This document shows, in pieces, positions 14,223-25,977 of a DNA stretch of 64,000 nucleotides. The stretch lies in NCBI GenBank assembly GCA_965216565.1, contig OZ244170.1, positions 2,496,001 to 2,560,000 on the forward strand. The letters are read 5' to 3'. Both the position numbers and the translations under genes were made by a program. Source of the DNA: Bythopirellula sp. (GTDB taxonomy: Bacteria > Planctomycetota > Planctomycetia > Pirellulales > Lacipirellulaceae). Under the pieces are notes generated by a model, which was not told the origin of the DNA, searched no databases, and was given only the letters and a program-made list of their open reading frames with translations. Positions within the stretch are counted from its first letter, which is position 1; each line of letters starts with the position of its first letter.

Positions 14223-14537
14223 TCAATCATCCAGCGGGCTGGGGAGCTGGCTGCCGTGCCGGAATTTCAGCACCCGCACAACTTTAAGTTCTTCGTCGAT
14301 GGTATAGATGAATAAACAGCGGTCGACGACCAACACACGCAGACCAAGGTTCTCGAAGTCGTTTTCTGGAGCATACGGGCAACGGTGAGGCATGTGCTCT
14401 AGTGACAATATTCTGCGAACAGATTTCTCCCACTAGTTAATCGCAACTTGAGGGGAACCGTGTTCGGAGATGTAGTCCAGGTAGCTTTCCACTCCGGCCA
14501 GCATTTTGTCAGAAAGGATGACGCGATATTTCTTCAT
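14223..14537 (-). pseudogene. RelE/ParE-family toxin with in-frame TAG at codon 35
   Basis: MKKYRVILSDKMLAGVESYLDYISEHGSPQVAIN*WEKSVRRILSLEHMPHRCP...VVRVLKFRHGSQ. The stop lies at 14433-14435, and the start overlaps the upstream gene's stop (ATGA). Confidence 0.8.
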
Positions 14538-14803
14538 CGAGGCATCTTGAAGCCGAACTTCTTGCCGAGTTCGCTGAGAGCCTCACGTGCATCGTGGCCT
14601 CCACCTTCCTTCATTTCCTCGTTGATCCTATCGCACTCGGCGGCACTCTGCCGAAGTTCTTCATCCGTCATTCCGCACTTCAGGTCAAATGCGGCTTCGT
14701 CGGCAAGCGACTGCAAGTATGTCGCCACGTTAATAAAACCCGCTGCGGAGGCCTGTTCGCTAAGCTTGGCGAATTGATCGTCAGGTAATTCAATACTTGC
14801 CAT
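14534..14803 (-). CDS. Putative type II antitoxin
   Basis: Small acidic protein (MASIELPDDQFAKLSEQASAAGF..VATYLQSL) translationally coupled upstream of the ParE-like toxin. Confidence 0.7.
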   Translation of the reverse strand: MASIELPDDQFAKLSEQASAAGFINVATYLQSLADEAAFDLKCGMTDEELRQSAAECDRINEEMKEGGGHDAREALSELGKKFGFKMPR

Positions 14804-14906
14804 GCTACAATTCTCGCATCCAATCGAGTTATTTGTCAAAGGGAAACCGTATTCTTCAGCTAGAACCTAATTAATTCTAAGTTATTAAGCCACAGAGCTT
14901 TCTCCC

Positions 14907-16694: not shown

Positions 16695-17687
16695 ATGGCA
16701 AGTACCGCATTTCGTTTACCGTTTGAACAGCCAATCTACGAATTGTCTGAGCAAATTGATGACCTTGAGAGCAATGACTCAAAGACGCCCGAAATGCACG
16801 ATCGCATTCGCGGTCTGCGGAAACAGCTCACCGAGACAACCAAAACGATCTACAAGAATCTCGGTCCTTGGGAAACGGTACGCGTTGCGCGTCATCCAGA
16901 TCGTCCCATGTTCACCGACTATATGAATTTGGTGTTTGATGAATTTGTCGAGCTACACGGCGACAAGTTTTTTGGCGACGATCGCGCACTCCGCACAGGT
17001 TTTGCCAAGATCGACCAATTCAAAGTGTTGGTAGCCGGGCATCACAAAGGCAAGACCCTCAAGGAGCGCAATGAGTGTTACTTTGGTTGTGCGCATCCAG
17101 AAGGGTATCGCAAGGCCATGGAAAAGATGCAATTGGCGGCTAAGTACGGCTTGCCAATCATCACGCTGATCGATACGCCAGGTGCCTATCCGGGAATTGG
17201 CGCCGAAGAACGGGGCCAGGCCCAGGTGATTGCCGAAAGCATGCTTGCCATGTCGCGACTGCCGGTGCCAATCATATGTATTGTGATTGGCGAAGGTGGC
17301 TCGGGCGGTGCTTTGGGAATTGGCGTTGGCGATCGTGTTGCCGTTTTGCAACACGCCTATTATTCGGTGATCAGTCCCGAAGGCTGCGCCGGCATCCTCT
17401 GGAAAAGTCACGACTACGCCGAGCAAGCGGCCCAAGCCTTGCGAATCACTTCCAGCCATCTGGAGAAGTTTGGAGCCGTCGACGACGTCATTGAGGAGCC
17501 CCTGGGTGGTGCCCATCGCGACCACCATCAGACGGCGGGTCGATTGAAGATGTATCTCATCAAAACGCTCCGCGAATTGTCGAAATTGCCCACCGACGAG
17601 CTGCTGAGTCAGCGGTACGAACGATTCCGCAAAATTGGCCCGTTCAGCGAGGCTGCGGACGATTCTGGGAGCAATTCTGAGGGCTGA
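16695..17687 (+). CDS. accA: Acetyl-CoA carboxylase carboxyltransferase alpha subunit
   Basis: ARHPDRP, LHGDK.FGDD, IDTPGAYPGIGAEERGQ, GEGGSGGAL and YSVISPEGCA. Confidence 0.97.
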   Translation: MASTAFRLPFEQPIYELSEQIDDLESNDSKTPEMHDRIRGLRKQLTETTKTIYKNLGPWETVRVARHPDRPMFTDYMNLVFDEFVELHGDKFFGDDRALRTGFAKIDQFKVLVAGHHKGKTLKERNECYFGCAHPEGYRKAMEKMQLAAKYGLPIITLIDTPGAYPGIGAEERGQAQVIAESMLAMSRLPVPIICIVIGEGGSGGALGIGVGDRVAVLQHAYYSVISPEGCAGILWKSHDYAEQAAQALRITSSHLEKFGAVDDVIEEPLGGAHRDHHQTAGRLKMYLIKTLRELSKLPTDELLSQRYERFRKIGPFSEAADDSGSNSEG

Positions 17688-17955
17688 TTCTCTCGGGCCC
17701 GGCGGTCCATCGGATCGCGGCTGTTTTCCAGAGATTTAGACTTTGCTTGCTCCTTCTAAATCCCCTTTGCTGCATTCACATTCATGGTGCATGCTTCGCT
17801 ACTTCGGGGTCATTTTCGGACGCGCCAAATCGTTCCATTTACGGACAGATTTCTGACGTCAGCATGCGGCTGGTTCATTGCAATTTAGGTGACGGTTTGA
17901 GGCCGTAGGGTGGGGCGTGAGATGCAAATAGCATGTATTCCAGACTCTAGCCCCA

Positions 17956-17983
17956 ACGTCCGATAATCATAGTGGAGTATGGC
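17956..17983 (+). other. Left junction (attL-like): XerC arm + hexamer + degenerate XerD arm
   Basis: ACGTCCGATAA TCATAG TGGAGTATGGC. Confidence 0.8.
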
Positions 17984-18085
17984 GTAAGCTGGCACTCATT
18001 CTAGGTTTCTCAGACCTGGACAGGGCAGTGCGGATCAGTCCCCGTGGGCGAGTCCGCACTGCCAATTTTCTAGGAGTGCCACTAG

Positions 18086-19207
18086 ATGTTCTCTATGAAG
18101 CTCAAGGACCGCGAGTCCTGGCTTGATCCGGAGTCTGCCGGAATTTTGGGGTGGAAGTTGGGTAAGCGTCTGTGGGCCCGTTGCAAGGGCCACGAGGGAC
18201 GTTTCATCACGCTCACGTACGATCGTAAGAATTACCTAGATGCCCAAGATTGTTTCGACAAGTCCAGGGCACAGAAGCATGTCTCTCGTTTCATGCGGAA
18301 GCTAGGAGCAGCTATCAATTGCGATCTGCGTGGTAAGTGGATTTGCAAGTTGGAGTTCCAAGAGGGCGGGTGGGTCCACTGGCACATTCTGTTGCTGGAC
18401 GTTGGTTACATTCCACAGAAGATCGTTCTTGATATCTGGGGTAAGGGCTTCATCCACCTTAAGCAACTCAACGAAGCGAATGCGATGTATCTGACCAAGT
18501 ACGTTGCGAAGGACGGATCGATTCCAGGTTTCGTATATGACTATCCGTCACGGAGCATCAAGGTTGTCAGAGCGTCACTTGGTTTTTGGAACGATGAGCA
18601 GGCGAAGAGAGCGAGGGAGAAGGCGGCTAAGAGCCGTCGTTCTACTCGTGCTCAACTTATGAAGGGAGCGAAGCGGGAAGAACAGTTCTATGTTCCGGTT
18701 GGTGAGAAGCTGCGACAAGAGGCAGTGTTGTTCCGAACTGGGAGGCGAACATTCTCACTTAAGTGCTCTCGTCTTAAAGTACTGCAAGCTCTTCGTAAGT
18801 ACTGCGGACAACCCAAGGTTGAGGGAACATGGCGACACTACGCAGATGGTGATCAAGTACTGGATCGAGTGGTAGTGGAGTGTGATCCGGCGAGGACGAG
18901 CAGCGTGCGGAAGCAATCGCCCGCAGCCGGAGCAACAGCTCCGCATGACACCCGACCACTATTCTTGAAAGGAACCGGTAATCGTGTCGGATGGTGGTTG
19001 GTCCTGGTAAAGGGCAAGTATCGTACTGTTAGCCCTGCTGACATTGCTGGCAGATTGTCCAAGTGGTGGGCTAAGAATGCTCCGTGGTGGACGCTGCAGT
19101 GGATCGAGCAGGAAGCTAGATATCAGCTTGGAATGACGATGCACGGACATTGGGGTGAACCCTCGGATGCTCGTCCTAATTTGGAGAAGGCCTCATGCAA
19201 TTACTAA
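18086..19207 (+). CDS. HUH rolling-circle replication initiator (Rep), copy 1
   Basis: Motif I FITLTY, motif II HWHILL (HUH) preceded by LEFQ..G, and motif III YLTKYVAK (two tyrosines). Confidence 0.9.
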   Translation: MFSMKLKDRESWLDPESAGILGWKLGKRLWARCKGHEGRFITLTYDRKNYLDAQDCFDKSRAQKHVSRFMRKLGAAINCDLRGKWICKLEFQEGGWVHWHILLLDVGYIPQKIVLDIWGKGFIHLKQLNEANAMYLTKYVAKDGSIPGFVYDYPSRSIKVVRASLGFWNDEQAKRAREKAAKSRRSTRAQLMKGAKREEQFYVPVGEKLRQEAVLFRTGRRTFSLKCSRLKVLQALRKYCGQPKVEGTWRHYADGDQVLDRVVVECDPARTSSVRKQSPAAGATAPHDTRPLFLKGTGNRVGWWLVLVKGKYRTVSPADIAGRLSKWWAKNAPWWTLQWIEQEARYQLGMTMHGHWGEPSDARPNLEKASCNY

Positions 19208-19857
19208 CAGACATTCAACGAGATTACCTTAGCTGCATTCATTCGCAATGGGAGAGATCAGCTTTGACGTTTTGTCGTAAGAAGCTCAAGGTGTCCTCTG
19301 AATTTCTTCGGCGAGATGAGTTCGAGGAGCATTGGCAAGCTGCGATGGTTGAGATTGCGTATTTAATTCAGCGAGGCGAGTGGGACATCGTGAAGGAAGC
19401 TGAACGTGGCAATGGTCGAATTTGCTGGATAGCTTTGCAGACGTTTTATCGTTCACGGTATGAGCATAGGTATATGGAACGTGTGCTCGCTGATTCTAAT
19501 GAAGCCCTAATCTCCTTAGTTGAGTCCGAAGAACCAGTTGTTGGAGGAATTAAAGCGTCGAGAGTTGTAAACGAATTAAAGATGTTAATATCTGGTCTTC
19601 CAGAGAAGCGTCGATTGGTGATGGAGATGCTGGTTGAAGTGGTAGAAGACGCTAGATTTGATTTGGATGACATGATGCACTGCGTGAAGCTACGCATACG
19701 TGAGGGACTGTCTGAACGTGGTTATGAGTTCACGCCGATTCAAGTACAGAACGCGTTGTTCTCGGGGCGTAAGCAACTATGGGAACAACTTAGAGAACGT
19801 GGCTTGGTTTCAGGTGAAAGACCCCGCCTTGGAAGAGGTGGCGTTGGAAGTAAGTAG
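19195..19857 (+). CDS. Divergent sigma-70/ECF-like helical protein, copy 1
   Basis: Region-2-like EFEEHWQAAMVEI...WIALQTFYRSR and region-4-like LISGLPEKRRLVMEM...QVQNALFSGRKQLWEQL. It overlaps the rep stop and has GGAG upstream. The ORF is convincing; the function is inferred. Confidence 0.55.
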   Translation: MQLLTDIQRDYLSCIHSQWERSALTFCRKKLKVSSEFLRRDEFEEHWQAAMVEIAYLIQRGEWDIVKEAERGNGRICWIALQTFYRSRYEHRYMERVLADSNEALISLVESEEPVVGGIKASRVVNELKMLISGLPEKRRLVMEMLVEVVEDARFDLDDMMHCVKLRIREGLSERGYEFTPIQVQNALFSGRKQLWEQLRERGLVSGERPRLGRGGVGSK

Positions 19858-19875
19858 TTTGGTTGTTTTCGTGTA

Positions 19876-20037
19876 GTTGTTGCACACTATGGGGTTGCCG
19901 CGTGAGATCGCGAAGGCGAGGCGGCGGAAGAGTTCGGTCCGTGTACAAGGGGCATGGAGAAGCTGAGCACGCCGCCTCGCCGTTAGCGACTCGGGGCAGT
20001 CGAACGCGGCAACAGGGTCCCATAGTGTTGCAACAAC
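19876..20037. other. Long imperfect hairpin, candidate single-strand origin (copy 1; copy 2 at 22749-22910)
   Basis: Nested inverted repeats GTTGTTGCA/TGCAACAAC, CACTATGGG/CCCATAGTG, GTTGCCGCGT/ACGCGGCAAC and GGCGAGGCGGCG/CGCCGCCTCGCC. Confidence 0.7.
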
Positions 20038-20060
20038 GGTTCATTTGAAAGGAGTTTGTA

Positions 20061-20348
20061 GTGTCTAATTTGTTTGGAGTTGCTAAAGCAGGTTTTGATA
20101 TTGTTGGGGAGGTCACTGAGGAGCGTATTCTTCGAAGTACCAAGGAGTCGGCCAAGGATTGGAAACAACCTGTGTGTAAGGTAGTTACAGCCGGCTCAAC
20201 TTTAGAGGTCCAACTAACTGAAGAACAGCATTCGCAGGTGTTGGTCGGGAATGCTTACCAGTTCGTTGGCAGAATTGCTAAGGAAGGAGGGAGAATCAAC
20301 CTAGTTGTTGAAGAATTAAGGAAGCTGGCGACGCCGAAGGCGTCTTGA
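20061..20348 (+). CDS. Small beta-rich protein, probable ssDNA-binding (OB-fold) protein, copy 1
   Basis: GTG start with a strong AAAGGAG RBS; 95 aa with an alternating beta-strand pattern (FDIVGEV, VCKVVT, TLEVQL, YQFVGRI, INLVVE); located in a Rep module. Confidence 0.55.
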   Translation: MSNLFGVAKAGFDIVGEVTEERILRSTKESAKDWKQPVCKVVTAGSTLEVQLTEEQHSQVLVGNAYQFVGRIAKEGGRINLVVEELRKLATPKAS

Positions 20349-20349
20349 G

Positions 20350-20595
20350 ATGAAGATTCGACCGTACCGAAAGGATGGATATCGCCGACGTCGGCGAGTT
20401 CATGTGAGGATGGACGAATCGTTAGTAGATGCAATGGATGAGTTGGCTAGAGCACTCTCGCTGAGTCGTTCGCATCTCTGTGATCTGATTCTCGGCATAG
20501 CTGTCGAGGAGGGTGGTGAATGGTTACGGTCCGCAATCAACAAGCGTGTAAAACAGGCTCTTAATCGAAAACGTGACAGCACTTTTCAAGAATGA
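20350..20595 (+). CDS. Ribbon-helix-helix (CopG/Arc-like) DNA-binding protein, copy 1
   Basis: RVHVRMDESLVDAMDELARALSLSRSHLCDLIL fits the RHH pattern. Confidence 0.8.
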   Translation: MKIRPYRKDGYRRRRRVHVRMDESLVDAMDELARALSLSRSHLCDLILGIAVEEGGEWLRSAINKRVKQALNRKRDSTFQE

Positions 20596-20828
20596 GCTTG
20601 ATCTTTGATGATTGCTATCCGTATGATTTTGGAAGGTCGTTCGGGGTGTTCCTGAGCGCGAGAGTGTCTGAGAAATCGACGCGCATAAAATGGGCCCACA
20701 TACTCTCTGACGGGGGAACATGTGAGCCCAATGATTAAGCACGTCACTGAAAGAAATTTCACATCCAGATGACGCATCTACATGATACGAAATCGTCGCT
20801 GCAGGGCAAAGCCTATTCGGTAGCCCCA

Positions 20829-20856
20829 ACGTCCGATAATCATAGTGGAGTATGGC
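20829..20856 (+). other. Internal junction, equivalent to attP of the circular form
   Basis: ACGTCCGATAA TCATAG TGGAGTATGGC with element sequence on both sides. Confidence 0.8.
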
Positions 20857-20958
20857 GTAAGCTGGCACTCATTCTAGGTTTCTCAGACCTGGACAGGGCA
20901 GTGCGGATCAGTCCCCGTGGGCGAGTCCGCACTGCCAATTTTCTAGGAGTGCCACTAG

Positions 20959-22080
20959 ATGTTCTCTATGAAGCTCAAGGACCGCGAGTCCTGGCTTGAT
21001 CCGGAGTCTGCCGGAATTTTGGGGTGGAAGTTGGGTAAGCGTCTGTGGGCCCGTTGCAAGGGCCACGAGGGACGTTTCATCACGCTCACGTACGATCGTA
21101 AGAATTACCTAGATGCCCAAGATTGTTTCGACAAGTCCAGGGCACAGAAGCATGTCTCTCGTTTCATGCGGAAGCTAGGAGCAGCTATCAATTGCGATCT
21201 GCGTGGTAAGTGGATTTGCAAGTTGGAGTTCCAAGAGGGCGGGTGGGTCCACTGGCACATTCTGTTGCTGGACGTTGGTTACATTCCACAGAAGATCGTT
21301 CTTGATATCTGGGGTAAGGGCTTCATCCACCTTAAGCAACTCAACGAAGCGAATGCGATGTATCTGACCAAGTACGTTGCGAAGGACGGATCGATTCCAG
21401 GTTTCGTATATGACTATCCGTCACGGAGCATCAAGGTTGTCAGAGCGTCACTTGGTTTTTGGAACGATGAGCAGGCGAAGAGAGCGAGGGAGAAGGCGGC
21501 TAAGAGCCGTCGTTCTACTCGTGCTCAACTTATGAAGGGAGCGAAGCGGGAAGAACAGTTCTATGTTCCGGTTGGTGAGAAGCTGCGACAAGAGGCAGTG
21601 TTGTTCCGAACTGGGAGGCGAACATTCTCACTTAAGTGCTCTCGTCTTAAAGTACTGCAAGCTCTTCGTAAGTACTGCGGACAACCCAAGGTTGAGGGAA
21701 CATGGCGACACTACGCAGATGGTGATCAAGTACTGGATCGAGTGGTAGTGGAGTGTGATCCGGCGAGGACGAGCAGCGTGCGGAAGCAATCGCCCGCAGC
21801 CGGAGCAACAGCTCCGCATGACACCCGACCACTATTCTTGAAAGGAACCGGTAATCGTGTCGGATGGTGGTTGGTCCTGGTAAAGGGCAAGTATCGTACT
21901 GTTAGCCCTGCTGACATTGCTGGCAGATTGTCCAAGTGGTGGGCTAAGAATGCTCCGTGGTGGACGCTGCAGTGGATCGAGCAGGAAGCTAGATATCAGC
22001 TTGGAATGACGATGCACGGACATTGGGGTGAACCCTCGGATGCTCGTCCTAATTTGGAGAAGGCCTCATGCAATTACTAA
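20959..22080 (+). CDS. HUH rolling-circle Rep, copy 2
   Basis: Translation identical to 18086-19207. Confidence 0.9.
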   Translation: MFSMKLKDRESWLDPESAGILGWKLGKRLWARCKGHEGRFITLTYDRKNYLDAQDCFDKSRAQKHVSRFMRKLGAAINCDLRGKWICKLEFQEGGWVHWHILLLDVGYIPQKIVLDIWGKGFIHLKQLNEANAMYLTKYVAKDGSIPGFVYDYPSRSIKVVRASLGFWNDEQAKRAREKAAKSRRSTRAQLMKGAKREEQFYVPVGEKLRQEAVLFRTGRRTFSLKCSRLKVLQALRKYCGQPKVEGTWRHYADGDQVLDRVVVECDPARTSSVRKQSPAAGATAPHDTRPLFLKGTGNRVGWWLVLVKGKYRTVSPADIAGRLSKWWAKNAPWWTLQWIEQEARYQLGMTMHGHWGEPSDARPNLEKASCNY

Positions 22081-22730
22081 CAGACATTCAACGAGATTAC
22101 CTTAGCTGCATTCATTCGCAATGGGAGAGATCAGCTTTGACGTTTTGTCGTAAGAAGCTCAAGGTGTCCTCTGAATTTCTTCGGCGAGATGAGTTCGAGG
22201 AGCATTGGCAAGCTGCGATGGTTGAGATTGCGTATTTAATTCAGCGAGGCGAGTGGGACATCGTGAAGGAAGCTGAACGTGGCAATGGTCGAATTTGCTG
22301 GATAGCTTTGCAGACGTTTTATCGTTCACGGTATGAGCATAGGTATATGGAACGTGTGCTCGCTGATTCTAATGAAGCCCTAATCTCCTTAGTTGAGTCC
22401 GAAGAACCAGTTGTTGGAGGAATTAAAGCGTCGAGAGTTGTAAACGAATTAAAGATGTTAATATCTGGTCTTCCAGAGAAGCGTCGATTGGTGATGGAGA
22501 TGCTGGTTGAAGTGGTAGAAGACGCTAGATTTGATTTGGATGACATGATGCACTGCGTGAAGCTACGCATACGTGAGGGACTGTCTGAACGTGGTTATGA
22601 GTTCACGCCGATTCAAGTACAGAACGCGTTGTTCTCGGGGCGTAAGCAACTATGGGAACAACTTAGAGAACGTGGCTTGGTTTCAGGTGAAAGACCCCGC
22701 CTTGGAAGAGGTGGCGTTGGAAGTAAGTAG
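22068..22730 (+). CDS. Divergent sigma-70/ECF-like protein, copy 2
   Basis: Identical to 19195-19857. Confidence 0.55.
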   Translation: MQLLTDIQRDYLSCIHSQWERSALTFCRKKLKVSSEFLRRDEFEEHWQAAMVEIAYLIQRGEWDIVKEAERGNGRICWIALQTFYRSRYEHRYMERVLADSNEALISLVESEEPVVGGIKASRVVNELKMLISGLPEKRRLVMEMLVEVVEDARFDLDDMMHCVKLRIREGLSERGYEFTPIQVQNALFSGRKQLWEQLRERGLVSGERPRLGRGGVGSK

Positions 22731-22933
22731 TTTGGTTGTTTTCGTGTAGTTGTTGCACACTATGGGGTTGCCGCGTGAGATCGCGAAGGCGAGGCGGCGG
22801 AAGAGTTCGGTCCGTGTACAAGGGGCATGGAGAAGCTGAGCACGCCGCCTCGCCGTTAGCGACTCGGGGCAGTCGAACGCGGCAACAGGGTCCCATAGTG
22901 TTGCAACAACGGTTCATTTGAAAGGAGTTTGTA

Positions 22934-23221
22934 GTGTCTAATTTGTTTGGAGTTGCTAAAGCAGGTTTTGATATTGTTGGGGAGGTCACTGAGGAGCGTA
23001 TTCTTCGAAGTACCAAGGAGTCGGCCAAGGATTGGAAACAACCTGTGTGTAAGGTAGTTACAGCCGGCTCAACTTTAGAGGTCCAACTAACTGAAGAACA
23101 GCATTCGCAGGTGTTGGTCGGGAATGCTTACCAGTTCGTTGGCAGAATTGCTAAGGAAGGAGGGAGAATCAACCTAGTTGTTGAAGAATTAAGGAAGCTG
23201 GCGACGCCGAAGGCGTCTTGA
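22934..23221 (+). CDS. Probable ssDNA-binding protein, copy 2
   Basis: Identical to 20061-20348. Confidence 0.55.
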   Translation: MSNLFGVAKAGFDIVGEVTEERILRSTKESAKDWKQPVCKVVTAGSTLEVQLTEEQHSQVLVGNAYQFVGRIAKEGGRINLVVEELRKLATPKAS

Positions 23222-23222
23222 G

Positions 23223-23468
23223 ATGAAGATTCGACCGTACCGAAAGGATGGATATCGCCGACGTCGGCGAGTTCATGTGAGGATGGACGAATCGTTAGTA
23301 GATGCAATGGATGAGTTGGCTAGAGCACTCTCGCTGAGTCGTTCGCATCTCTGTGATCTGATTCTCGGCATAGCTGTCGAGGAGGGTGGTGAATGGTTAC
23401 GGTCCGCAATCAACAAGCGTGTAAAACAGGCTCTTAATCGAAAACGTGACAGCACTTTTCAAGAATGA
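23223..23468 (+). CDS. Ribbon-helix-helix protein, copy 2
   Basis: Identical to 20350-20595. Confidence 0.8.
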   Translation: MKIRPYRKDGYRRRRRVHVRMDESLVDAMDELARALSLSRSHLCDLILGIAVEEGGEWLRSAINKRVKQALNRKRDSTFQE

Positions 23469-23701
23469 GCTTGATCTTTGATGATTGCTATCCGTATGAT
23501 TTTGGAAGGTCGTTCGGGGTGTTCCTGAGCGCGAGAGTGTCTGAGAAATCGACGCGCATAAAATGGGCCCACATACTCTCTGACGGGGGAACATGTGAGC
23601 CCAATGATTAAGCACGTCACTGAAAGAAATTTCACATCCAGATGACGCATCTACATGATACGAAATCGTCGCTGCAGGGCAAAGCCTATTCGGTAGCCCC
23701 A

Positions 23702-23729
23702 ACGTCCGATAATCATAGTTATGTTCGTT
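23702..23729 (+). other. dif: Chromosome dimer resolution site dif (also attR of the element)
   Basis: ACGTCCGATAA-TCATAG-TTATGTTCGTT has the 11-6-11 layout and ATAA-N6-TTAT core of E. coli dif (GGTGCGCATAA TGTATA TTATGTTAAAT). It is intergenic, and KOPS-like octamers converge on it. Confidence 0.85.
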
Positions 23730-23916
23730 TCCGGGGCGTTTTTCCCCGGGATTTAAGCCATTGGCTCTCTCCTGCTCTGCGAAGTGTGTTCTGTGGCGGA
23801 TAGCTTGATTGGTGGAAGAAGTCGAGCTAGTCTGTCGTCTCACGGCGGCTACCAATCCCCCACAATGAATCCTCAGTTTGCCCCCCCTCTCGCCACTTCA
23901 AAAGGATGTGAATTGC

Positions 23917-25977
23917 ATGCTCTCTGCGACACGATTTCTGTTATCGATTGCCGTCATTTTGGTTGGGATTTTATTCCCAAATCGGGCCTATTCCGACGAA
24001 GGAATGTGGCTGTTCGAGGACCTGCCCAAAGACGCTCTGAAGCGGCAATATGACTTCGAGCCCACAGAGGAGTGGGCCCGGCACGTCATGCTCTCCAGCG
24101 TCCGATTTAGCTCCGGGGGATCGGCCTCTTTTGTCTCCAGTAACGGCCTGGTTTTGACCAATCACCACGTGGCCGAGGACACGCTGCATAAGCTCTCCAC
24201 GCCCGAGCAAAACTACATGAAAAACGGCTTCCTGGCCCAATCGCAGGACGATGAGATTCCAGCCCCCGATTTGGAGCTGAATCAGCTTGTTTCGGTCGAA
24301 GATGTGACCGACCGCGTCGAGGCGGCAGTGTCTGACGAGATGGATACTTCGGCCGCAAAGCAGGCCCGCAGGGCCGTGATGGCGCAAATCGAACAGGAAT
24401 CGCTCGACGCCACGGGTCTGCGAAGCGATGTGATCACGCTCTATGGCGGCGCAAAGTACCATCTATATCGCTACAAGAAGTACACCGATGTACGCTTAGT
24501 CTGGGCTCCGGAATACAAAGCGGCATTCTTCGGAGGCGACAACGACAATTTCGAGTATCCCCGGTACTGCATGGACGTGACGTTGTTCCGTGTTTACGAA
24601 GACGGCAAGCCAGTGGAAGTCGAGCATTTCCTCCGTTGGTCAGAAAACGGAGCGGCCGAAGGCGAACTCGTCTTCGTTTCTGGCAACCCCGGCTATACCG
24701 AACGAGACAAGACGGCCGACGCCTTGCGATTTGCTCGTGACTTTTCTTTGCCAAGCTATCTACAGTACATCACGCGGATGGAAATTGAGCTGCAGCAGTA
24801 TAGCAACGAAAGCCCGGAACATCGCCGACGCGCCCACGATGATCTGTTTGGAATTCAAAACAATCGCAAACGTTCGCTCGGCATGAGTGAAGGTTTGCAG
24901 AATCCAGCGCTGATCGCCACAAAGGAAGCTGCGGAGAAACAATTGCGTGCTCGGCTAGCAGAACGTGACGATCTGGAAGAGTTCGCCACAGCGTGGGATG
25001 AGATTGCCACCGCCCAACAGGAACGAGAAAAGCTCGTCAACGATTCTTTCTATATTTCATCGCGGCTGTACGAGATTGCTTTAGAACTGGTTCTCATGGC
25101 CACCGAAGATGCGAAACCGAATGAAGATCGTTACGAAGAGTTCCGCAATTCGGGTCGCGAATCGCTCGAACACGAATTGTTCTCCCCTGCGCCTATTTAC
25201 AACGATTTGGAGATTGCAAAGCTTGGAGCGAGTCTCTCGCTAGTGGCGGGCAAGTTGGGTGGCGATCATCCACTGGTCGTCACGATGCTTGCCGGGAAAA
25301 GCCCTCGCCAGCGGGCTGCTGAGCTAGTTGCTGGCACCAAGCTCAACGATGTTGAGTTGCGAAAGACACTCGCTAAGGAGGGCGCAGCTGCCATCGAAGC
25401 TTCAGACGATCCCATGATCGAGTTCGTACGAGCGATTGAGCCCTACTACCGCAAAGTTCGCGATCGCCAGGAAGAGCTTGAGGAAATCGAAAAACAGGCT
25501 TACGGCTCAATCCGCGAGGCCAAGACGGCGCTCGACGGTGCGAGCGGTTATCCCGATGCCACCTTTACCCTGCGGCTGGCTCTTGGTGTGGTGAAGGGCT
25601 ACGAAGAAGACGGCGTGTGGGTACCTCCATTTACGACCATCGCCGGTGCCTTTGAACACGAAGAGAAGCACGAAGCTAAGGAACCATGGCAACTGCCGGA
25701 GTCGTATCACGAGCATCGCGACCAGGTGGATGGTTCGGCACGGCTAAACTTTGTTTGTACGGCGGACATCATCGGCGGCAACTCCGGGAGTCCCGTCGTG
25801 AATCGCGATGGCGAGTTTGTCGGCATCATCTTTGACGGCAACATTCAAAGTCTCACTGCTTCGTACTACTACGACGACGTGATCTCGCGAGCCGTCTCGG
25901 TCCACAGCAGCGGCATCCGTGAAGTGATCCGCAATATCTACGGTGCGGACGATTTGGCTGACGAGTTGGGGGAATGA
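23917..25977 (+). CDS. S46 family dipeptidyl peptidase
   Basis: Signal peptide followed by DEGMW, SASFVSSNGLVLTNHH, YPDATFTLRL, DIIGGNSGSPV and FDGN. Confidence 0.93.
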   Translation: MLSATRFLLSIAVILVGILFPNRAYSDEGMWLFEDLPKDALKRQYDFEPTEEWARHVMLSSVRFSSGGSASFVSSNGLVLTNHHVAEDTLHKLSTPEQNYMKNGFLAQSQDDEIPAPDLELNQLVSVEDVTDRVEAAVSDEMDTSAAKQARRAVMAQIEQESLDATGLRSDVITLYGGAKYHLYRYKKYTDVRLVWAPEYKAAFFGGDNDNFEYPRYCMDVTLFRVYEDGKPVEVEHFLRWSENGAAEGELVFVSGNPGYTERDKTADALRFARDFSLPSYLQYITRMEIELQQYSNESPEHRRRAHDDLFGIQNNRKRSLGMSEGLQNPALIATKEAAEKQLRARLAERDDLEEFATAWDEIATAQQEREKLVNDSFYISSRLYEIALELVLMATEDAKPNEDRYEEFRNSGRESLEHELFSPAPIYNDLEIAKLGASLSLVAGKLGGDHPLVVTMLAGKSPRQRAAELVAGTKLNDVELRKTLAKEGAAAIEASDDPMIEFVRAIEPYYRKVRDRQEELEEIEKQAYGSIREAKTALDGASGYPDATFTLRLALGVVKGYEEDGVWVPPFTTIAGAFEHEEKHEAKEPWQLPESYHEHRDQVDGSARLNFVCTADIIGGNSGSPVVNRDGEFVGIIFDGNIQSLTASYYYDDVISRAVSVHSSGIREVIRNIYGADDLADELGE

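Follow-up and report, generated by a model that had tools for sequence, protein, structure and literature searches.

Integrative mobile elements that exploit Xer (IMEXs) have been worked out almost entirely in Proteobacteria, to which the microvirus prophages in enterobacteria and Bacteroidetes must be added. The tandem arrays that are common in CTXphi and RS1 allow circles to be produced from the chromosome by rolling-circle replication, and CTXphi integrates as folded single-stranded DNA (ssDNA), with an attP formed from two inverted dif-like sites. TLC is counted among the dif-integrating elements with rolling-circle replication. The gonococcal genetic island (GGI) and Legionella LME-1 are much larger islands or episomes without a core built on an HUH replication initiator (Rep), and LME-1 uses the single recombinase XerL. 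According to the sections cited here, both are stable IMEXs with one intact dif and one modified site that hinders excision (PMC6744903, PMC9765430); the Vibrio cholerae satellite TLCphi needs XafT, a protein with a helix-turn-helix and a DUF3653 domain that activates XerD, and DUF3653 proteins are reported there only from gamma- and beta-proteobacteria (PMC6744903); and the gokushovirus prophages (Microviridae) of enterobacteria lie at dif without an integrase, need xerC and xerD, lie between a bacterial dif and a phage dif-motif, the latter being most variable in its spacer and XerD arm, and are described there as detected only in enterobacteria (PMC7062461). Here we describe an element from the Planctomycetota. 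It lies in a 64,000-nucleotide stretch (the window, in whose coordinates positions are given below) of the Bythopirellula sp. assembly GCA_965216565.1, contig OZ244170.1, positions 2,496,001 to 2,560,000; the genome measures 5,211,746 bp and is called G000, and other labels in G, L and X denote other genomes, loci and sequencing runs. We consider it highly probable that this element, a rolling-circle replicon of 2,873 bp that encodes no recombinase and stands in two copies on the XerC-arm side of the chromosomal dif, is an IMEX.

The two units are arranged head to tail and are identical at every position (0/2,873 mismatches in a direct comparison). A repeat finder returned a direct repeat at a spacing of 2873, and a 26-nt core, TAGCCCCAACGTCCGATAATCATAGT, occurs three times, at 17948, 20821 and 23694. 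Identity between the units extends 0 nt to the left of 17948; at the other end, the third copy of the core matches for 26 nt and then continues with TATGTTCGTT in place of GGAGTATGGCG. A perfect tandem of 2.9 kb is far beyond chance. Each unit encodes four co-oriented open reading frames (ORFs) of 373, 220, 95 and 81 aa, the second set displaced by 2873, and the G+C content of the unit is 50.4%, against 54.7% in either 10-kb flank. A preliminary description of this DNA, made from the sequence alone, had proposed a tandem of two identical units with three cores, the last running into a dif-like site, and four co-oriented ORFs in each unit; direct comparison confirmed the former and ORF calling the latter.

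The site at which the tandem ends reads ACGTCCGATAA-TCATAG-TTATGTTCGTT, a XerC-type arm, a 6-bp centre and a XerD-type arm that together make up 28 bp in the 11+6+11 architecture described for Xer sites (PMC6744903, PMC7062461). Counted by hand against sequences printed in PMC3025954, it has 8/11 right-arm and 5/11 left-arm positions in common with the dif of Escherichia coli, and 7/11 in each arm with that of Frankia. The genome contains a single match to ATAA-N6-TTATGTT and, with as many as 6 mismatches allowed, a single match to the full site; a genome search found nothing comparable near the GC-skew extremes. At up to 3 mismatches, the 21-mer core is present in 28 of the 41 genomes searched, among them 22 of 24 congeners, and nearly always once per genome; the reversed pattern, used as a control, gave matches in 2 genomes. 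In 17 of 20 loci fetched from relatives the arms are AACGTCCGATAA and TTATGTTCG(T/G)T, neither of them changed, and the differences are confined to the 6-bp centre; the remaining three (L010, L011, L022) have changes in the arms. The neighborhood is conserved as well. In 17 of the 20 loci, three of them belonging to other families within the order, a serine/threonine kinase gene stands in linkage with accA and dif; in 17 of the 20, one intact dif follows the end of accA by about 100 nt; and accA also lies 5' of the dif locus in G081, G259 and G383. None of the 20 loci has, within 1.5 kb of dif, the S46 peptidase gene that follows dif in the window. The right neighbor of dif is not conserved, which places dif at a synteny breakpoint.

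Replication-associated sequence polarity changes at the same place. Among all 65,536 octamers, GGGCAGGG is, with z 6.5, the most strongly strand-polarized, and the turning point of its cumulative curve is at 2.50 Mb. It occurs 113 times forward and 19 times reversed to the left of dif, and 30 and 135 times, respectively, to the right. On the left, the final forward copy is 7,845 bp away from dif (15857); on the right, the first reverse copy, GGGNAGGG, which we take to be the KOPS consensus of E. coli, is 4,359 bp away (28061), so that the flip is localized to 12 kb around dif. In G081, a closed genome of another genus, the octamer is about 3.6-fold over-represented relative to its reversed control and is distributed 17/1 to the left and 0/27 to the right within 200 kb on either side of dif. 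The host also encodes XerD, whose 363.8 bits exceed the curated cut-off, together with a XerC-like paralogue (328.8 bits) and an FtsK that has a gamma domain (88.8 bits), all located elsewhere in the genome, outside the element. Judged from sequence, the site is a genuine chromosomal dif. For comparison, a genome-wide dif survey of 2011 failed in its prediction for the one planctomycete genome that it included (0/1; PMC3025954).

The attachment sites of the element are built on the host site. The unit-unit junction has the sequence that the attP of a free circle would have: the exact host XerC-type arm and 6-bp centre, followed by a non-canonical right arm, TGGAGTATGGC. In attL, the core is made up of 7 host-matching nt, the XerC-type arm (17956-17966), the centre TCATAG (17967-17972) and a shared T. 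The crossover falls at the right border of the centre, and identity ends one base into the right arm; hybrid sites thus stand at the left end and between the units, and an intact dif stands at the right end. All five integrated elements that we know of carry the 11-nt XerC-type arm without a change, even though Rep has diverged among them to 34% identity. The right arms, too, are similar in three diverged elements, those of the window, G259 and G081 (TGGAGTATGGCG, TGGAGTGTGTCG and TGAAGAATGTCA), and the likeness can be followed at 17974-17983 and in the L066 and L065 hybrid sites (TGGAGTATGG / TGGAGTGTGT / TGAAGAATGT). This resemblance among non-canonical arms suggests that they have a function. 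In G081 the centres differ, with TCGCCG in the hybrid site and TCGCTG in dif.

Close relatives document the locus in its empty state. Rep, orf2, orf3 and orf4 have no match in any of the 20 relatives' loci. In Logan contigs from two other studies (run X5 and run X6, one labelled as another organism and one an algal metagenome), positions 17400-17973 are matched with 7 substitutions in 574 nt, one contig having a 1-nt insertion in addition; after 17973 these contigs continue with TATGTTCGTTTC..., and TATGTTCGTTTCTGGGGCGTTTTTCCCCGG corresponds to the right flank of the window with one difference. The metagenome-assembled genome G013 holds both states, one contig running from accA through an intact dif into the right flank and another from an element through dif into the same right flank. 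Empty and occupied sites thus occur among close relatives, as expected of a mobile element. Run X5 also contains a 186-nt contig of depth 3 that resembles the start of rep at 18116-18168 (5 differences in 53 nt) with a different N-terminal coding sequence ahead of it. The main strain of that sample has the empty site, and a second element variant is present in it at low abundance.

The element belongs to a small family. Rep homologues occur in 5 of 120 genomes of the host family and 6 of 301 genomes of the order. Four other elements, in G013, G081, G259 and G383, are integrated between accA and dif with rep towards dif, a hybrid site on the left and an intact dif on the right, and together with G000 these genomes span four genera. 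The element of G013, from the same genus, is incomplete, its contig ending inside rep; its Rep is 61% identical to that of the window, its OB-fold and ribbon-helix-helix (RHH) proteins are 37% and 72% identical, and it is without orf2. The element of G081 (genus g18; 4,681 bp; Rep 36%) has an orf2 homologue, OB-fold and RHH genes, a PLD-like nuclease gene and two small membrane ORFs; that of G259 (g28; 3,204 bp; Rep 34%) has the gene order of the window; and that of G383 (g30; 2,237 bp; Rep 34%) consists of Rep, OB-fold and RHH genes only. Across the integrated elements, the family has a conserved core made up of Rep, the OB-fold protein, the RHH protein and the att site, with orf2 as an accessory gene. 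As for the cargo of the G081 element (L065, 8776-10662), the PLD-like nuclease matches PLDc_2 at 4.1e-9 and has a C-terminal extension, the two membrane-like ORFs are hydrophobic and 120 and 71 aa long, and the shorter has a coat-protein-like layout of a hydrophobic core and a basic tail.

Beyond the integrated elements, a metagenome scan for Rep recovered only relatives at 23-46% identity. On the metagenome contig L036, a 55-nt repeat beginning with AAGTCCGATAA-TACATG, a XerC-arm-like site, flanks a unit of 2,750 bp, and this 2,843-nt contig closes on itself through the repeat; it encodes OB-fold, Rep and RHH proteins and a true sigma-70 region-4 protein (Sigma70_r4_2, 1.8e-7). Two more distant relatives of Rep, each 40% identical, lie in other settings: L030 (188-3832) adjoins its own large serine recombinase, and L033 (3681-11258) lies in a 7.5-kb island bounded by 52-nt repeats resembling a tRNA 3' end. 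Next to that island, on a 352-kb metagenome contig, stand 13 tandem copies of a 147-bp unit (L033, 688-2751; identity to the reference copy 64-77%); this stretch probably codes for a repetitive protein. In IMG/VR, Rep relatives are only 25-29% identical and lie on nine contigs of 4.1-4.4 kb, seven of them with terminal overlaps; of two that were checked, one encodes the microvirus capsid protein F. A 4.4-kb circular IMG/VR contig with a PF23343 Rep (L049, 922-2172) encodes a class-3 lipase domain protein (2.8e-9) and has no recognizable capsid gene.

The coordinates of these features are collected in Table 1, and the gene products can be characterized as follows. Rep scores 55.7 bits against PF23343 (REP_ORF2-G2P; family cut-off 27.8) and also matches PHROG replication initiation families; its motifs FITLTY, GWVHWHILL and YLTKYVAK, as well as H98/H100 and Y135/Y139, are invariant in 15 homologues. 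All 52 of its database relatives carry PF23343, a family that we take to cover microvirus VP4, and those with names are hypothetical proteins; the closest (51-61% identical) are mostly on contigs of 1.8-2.6 kb. A comparison of Rep with solved structures returned only a spurious low-complexity match. The orf3 product, for which a full HMMER scan gave 20 relatives at E<=1e-3, most of them 82-108 aa long, is probably an ssDNA-binding protein: its alignment-based AlphaFold model (predicted local distance difference test [pLDDT] 90.6) has the OB topology beta1-3/helix/beta4-5, and Foldseek matched it to the PolC OB domain, RPA, Stn1, LEF-3, PriB and SSB at TM scores of 0.5-0.66. The RHH_1 match of orf4 is borderline, right at the gathering cut-off, and its matches to Arc-like repressor PHROGs are weak; it has homologues in all four other integrated elements at 40-72% identity. 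The 40-nt palindrome 5' of rep was found as a repeat, folds as a hairpin and may be a replication origin or an operator; an AGGGCAG-like motif is semi-conserved at the equivalent place in the G259 and G081 elements, 55-75 nt beyond the non-canonical right arm and oriented towards dif.

The fourth product, that of orf2, is more enigmatic. It is missing from the elements of G013 and G383, and its positional counterpart in the G081 element is a homologue (BLASTP 7e-8). We found no Pfam or PHROG match to it and no homologue in a word-indexed search of 5.8 billion proteins, and its single-sequence model is poor (pLDDT 47.8). A role as a sigma factor was rejected: its best NCBIfam ECF match has an E value of 0.092, no Pfam match to sigma regions was obtained, hhalign against the true sigma region-4 ORF of L036 gave a probability of 1.7%, and its atlas neighbors at 0.94 are leads only, which leave the sigma label unproven. 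A role as an analogue of XafT was likewise rejected, no family having been found for it and two members of the element family being without it; because it is missing from those two members, orf2 cannot be required for integration. Of the labels first given to the four ORFs, then, HUH Rep, "SSB-like" (as an OB-fold protein) and RHH stood, on the strength of PF23343, the model with its Foldseek matches, and RHH_1, respectively, and "sigma-like" fell for want of a significant match. The early observation that the unit has no gene for a recombinase, Zot-like ATPase or coat protein was borne out by Pfam, PHROG and NCBIfam searches of the four ORFs, which gave no recombinase, Zot or capsid domain at E<=1; no other ORF of at least 40 aa in the unit has a recombinase call, and no ORF of the unit matches DUF3653 or a XafT-like domain in Pfam at E<=1.

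Table 1. Features of the tandem element and its neighbors, in window coordinates
Feature	Position	Strand	Remarks
Element unit 1	17948..20820	+	2,873 bp, 0 differences from unit 2
Element unit 2	20821..23693	+	2,873 bp; opens with unit-unit junction site (core 20821-20846)
attL hybrid site	17948..17983	+	26-bp core 17948-17973, then the element's non-canonical right arm TGGAGTATGGC
attR	23694..23729	+	third core copy leading into intact chromosomal dif 23702-23729
40-nt palindrome	18024..18063; again 20897-20936	+	11-bp stem GGCAGTGCGGA / TCCGCACTGCC, just 5' of rep
rep, HUH rolling-circle replication initiator, 373 aa	18086..19207; copy 20959-22080	+	PF23343, 6.3e-15
orf2, predicted all-helical accessory protein, 220 aa	19195..19857; copy 22068-22730	+	homologue at same position in G081 element
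orf3, OB-fold protein, 95 aa	20061..20348; copy 22934-23221	+	AlphaFold model, Foldseek, relatives
orf4, ribbon-helix-helix DNA-binding protein, 81 aa	20350..20595; copy 23223-23468	+	RHH_1, 4.7e-4
accA, acetyl-CoA carboxylase carboxyltransferase alpha	16695..17687	+	PF03255, 2.2e-131; conserved left neighbor of dif
Peptidase S46 gene	23878..25977	+	PF10459, 2.5e-204; right neighbor of dif in studied genome only

Elsewhere in the window, at 14223-14839 on the minus strand, two small adjacent ORFs of 101 aa and 61 aa look by eye like an antitoxin and a toxin; the ParE/RelE-like label of the 61-aa product is a candidate made by eye only.

We propose the following scenario for how such an element would live at dif. 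Host XerC and XerD would catalyze the exchange between the attP of a circle and the chromosomal site. FtsK-driven excision may be inefficient because the resulting hybrid sites have a poor XerD arm, as is described for GGI, LME-1 and TLCphi. The second copy could have come from re-integration into the regenerated dif or from the integration of a replication dimer. Rep, an HUH enzyme with two catalytic tyrosines, would nick the origin, possibly the palindrome 5' of its gene, and rolling-circle replication across the tandem would release unit-length circles, with the OB-fold protein coating the ssDNA and the RHH protein acting as a regulator. The IMEX identity proposed in the preliminary description is supported by the lack of an integrase, the location at dif, the dif-mimicking site and the empty-site polymorphism. 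Its two companion expectations were also upheld: relatives without the element carry one intact site at this locus (17 of 20 loci, with the X5 and X6 contigs showing the exact empty site predicted), and no better dif exists elsewhere, the site being unique in the genome and KOPS-like polarity, though not GC skew, switching there.

Several observations weigh against this interpretation. There is no GC-skew switch at the site; cumulative skew peaks at 1.38 Mb and is lowest at 3.84 Mb, the skew being level between 2.47 and 2.70 Mb, so that two replication-related signals, skew and GGGCAGGG polarity, disagree. We regard GC skew in G000 as an unreliable marker of the terminus, a view that leaves the discrepancy itself standing. 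The assignment of the arms to XerC and XerD is based on resemblance to proteobacterial dif, and the element's right arm, TGGAGTATGGC, agrees with the XerD arm, TTATGTTCGTT, at 4/11 positions. Beyond the conserved arm, moreover, attP matches its host for 7 nt in G000, 8 nt in G013 and 5 nt in G383, and the matching bases are host-specific; in G081 and G259 the match is 1-2 nt only. Conservative Xer exchange does not by itself explain such a host-specific flank, behind which a short gene conversion during junction processing is one possibility. Depth is a further point. In Logan contigs from the probable source sample (run X1 and run X4; such depths are no measure of copy number, and rare variants are lost from contigs), the left-flank contig, one per run, passes through the attL junction into the element. 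Its depth is 27.8 in X1 and 87 in X4, compared with 36.9 and 155.1 for a 2,899-nt element unitig, 16.1 and 85 for a 34-nt contig across the unit-unit junction (20817-20850), and 18 and 81 for the junction into the right flank. The element unitig thus reaches only 1.3-1.8x the left flank, the unit-unit junction stands at about flank depth (~1x), and these contigs contain neither an empty site nor any sign of an abundant episome or of excision. Two copies per chromosome fit these depths, and one integrated copy with one circle per chromosome fits them equally well.

Two further ideas about the site and its surroundings were tried and rejected. For a folded ssDNA attP of the CTX type, a minimum-free-energy fold paired the core with an upstream segment, but the inverted match was no better than in shuffled sequences, of which 101/300 (extended site) and 50/300 (core) scored as high; G013 and L036 gave the same outcome. 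A remnant of an older element in the 260-nt spacer between accA and attL was also sought, and the similarity of the spacer to the unit (25) lies below the shuffle maximum of 30.

The depths bear on a first alternative, in which the element is an autonomous small rolling-circle plasmid that uses its dif-like site for multimer resolution, as with cer and psi, and integrates on occasion, the apparent tandem being one integrated and about one episomal copy. An integrated copy and a single-copy circle would give the depths seen as well as a tandem would, close Rep relatives mostly lie on contigs as small as a free unit, and the L036 contig closes on itself. Assemblers, however, also yield small contigs from tandem repeats, and the depths have no high-copy excess. 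One contig per run links the left flank to the element, the closed single-contig assembly has two copies, and five independent integrated copies, one in each of five genomes, agree in place and orientation. We consider such a plasmid possible but unlikely; even if real, it would still be an integrative plasmid of the IMEX type.

A second alternative would make the element a satellite of some ssDNA phage, with Rep and the OB-fold protein producing coated ssDNA circles for a helper's capsid in the manner of TLCphi or RS1. PF23343 is the Rep family of microviruses and inoviruses, and the relative with capsid F on a checked viral contig fits this proposal, as do the conservation of a dedicated OB-fold protein in the family and the two small membrane-protein ORFs of the G081 relative; a tandem, moreover, permits circle production without excision, as in CTXphi and RS1. 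Set against these points, no packaging signal or helper is known, and a search of the host genome for a helper phage found neither Zot nor capsid F nor a further PF23343 Rep, the capsid F negative being weak given that no control genome was matched either. We hold this alternative to be distinctly unlikely.

Nor is it probable that the element's own HUH Rep integrates it by nicking and joining at a sequence shared with dif, host Xer being uninvolved. HUH enzymes are capable of site-specific integration, adeno-associated virus Rep and IS91/IS200-type elements being examples; the 26 bp identical to the host extend past the Xer-binding arm; and attP has a poor XerD site for its right arm. Yet the XerC-type arm is exact in five elements despite the divergence of Rep, the sequence left of the core differs between the G000 and G013 elements, unlike a Rep nick site, and no hairpin presents the core, whose inverted copy is not significant. 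The site has the canonical 11+6+11 form, with the exchange point at the edge of its 6-bp centre, which is where Xer enzymes cut (PMC6744903); we judge integration by Rep very unlikely. It is also very unlikely, finally, that the tandem is an assembly artefact or a local duplication of immobile resident genes: perfect 2.9-kb repeats are indeed hard to assemble and the evidence comes from contigs, not raw reads, but the junction contig is present in X1 and X4 at about flank depth with an element unitig deeper than the flanks, near-identical relatives lack precisely the element, diverged relatives stand at dif in other genera, and the G+C content is below that of the flanks.

Integration at dif through host Xer recombinases is thus the interpretation that we carry forward, and the sequence data support a new family of IMEXs in a phylum new to them, the Planctomycetota; no report of a planctomycete dif or IMEX was found among the best-ranked literature matches. 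For an element without capsid, Zot or relaxase genes, the options for transfer are those of a phage satellite or of a passively transferred integrative plasmid. In its fullest form, which we put forward only tentatively and hold to be improbable as a whole, this interpretation would make the family the smallest known IMEXs (2.2-4.7 kb), a planctomycete lineage of capsid-less ssDNA replicons related to microvirus Rep. These would travel as satellites or be borne by vesicles or transformation, would drive Xer independently of DUF3653 through the right arm (TGGAGTNTG...) and a small DNA-binding protein of their own, would undergo gene conversion over 5-8 nt of host flank, and would define both the planctomycete dif and the GGGCAGGG KOPS-like motif.

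The implications reach beyond the element itself. It yields a well-supported planctomycete dif sequence that adjoins accA across the order, and a KOPS-like polarity motif by which the terminus can be recognized even though GC skew gives no readable signal, which is useful in a phylum with unusual cell division. Planctomycetes are hard to manipulate genetically, and very small replicons that target dif, with a core of about 2.2 kb, are possible single-copy, marker-light integration vectors for them. With this family one can also study what activates Xer recombination at a poor XerD arm when XafT is missing.

How, then, does the element compare with the systems already described? Like CTXphi and RS1, it is integrated at dif and in tandem; unlike CTXphi, it has no significant inverted copy of the core in its unit and no morphogenesis or toxin genes. 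With GGI and LME-1 it shares the pairing of one intact dif with one modified site and, as with LME-1, the attachment site reveals a dif that prediction had missed. In size, in its intact Rep motifs I-III and in its small RHH (CopG-like) regulator, it resembles the small rolling-circle plasmids with an HUH Rep. Such plasmids, to our knowledge, do not typically integrate at dif or carry an OB-fold gene; the element, in contrast, is integrated at dif and encodes an OB-fold protein, and its double- and single-strand origins are not assignable here. It also differs from the more distant Rep relatives of L030 and L033, which use integration systems of their own. Closer to it are the gokushovirus prophages, likewise ssDNA-type replicons with a Rep of the VP4-type family, dif flanks and no integrase. 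Those, however, are complete viruses of 4.3-4.7 kb with capsid genes; the element has no capsid, and its Rep is 25-29% identical to those of the nearest viral contigs. TLCphi is, like the element, small, integrase-less, capsid-less and located at dif, and the XerD-binding arm of its attP is described as far from canonical (PMC6744903), as is that of the element at 4/11 positions. The two differ in phylum, in unit size (2.2-4.7 kb in the planctomycete family), in gene set (PF23343 Rep, OB-fold and RHH proteins in the element) and in the lack of any DUF3653 or XafT-like match here. Although it fails the defining XafT/DUF3653 feature, the element works most like TLCphi, being satellite-sized and having a poor XerD arm.

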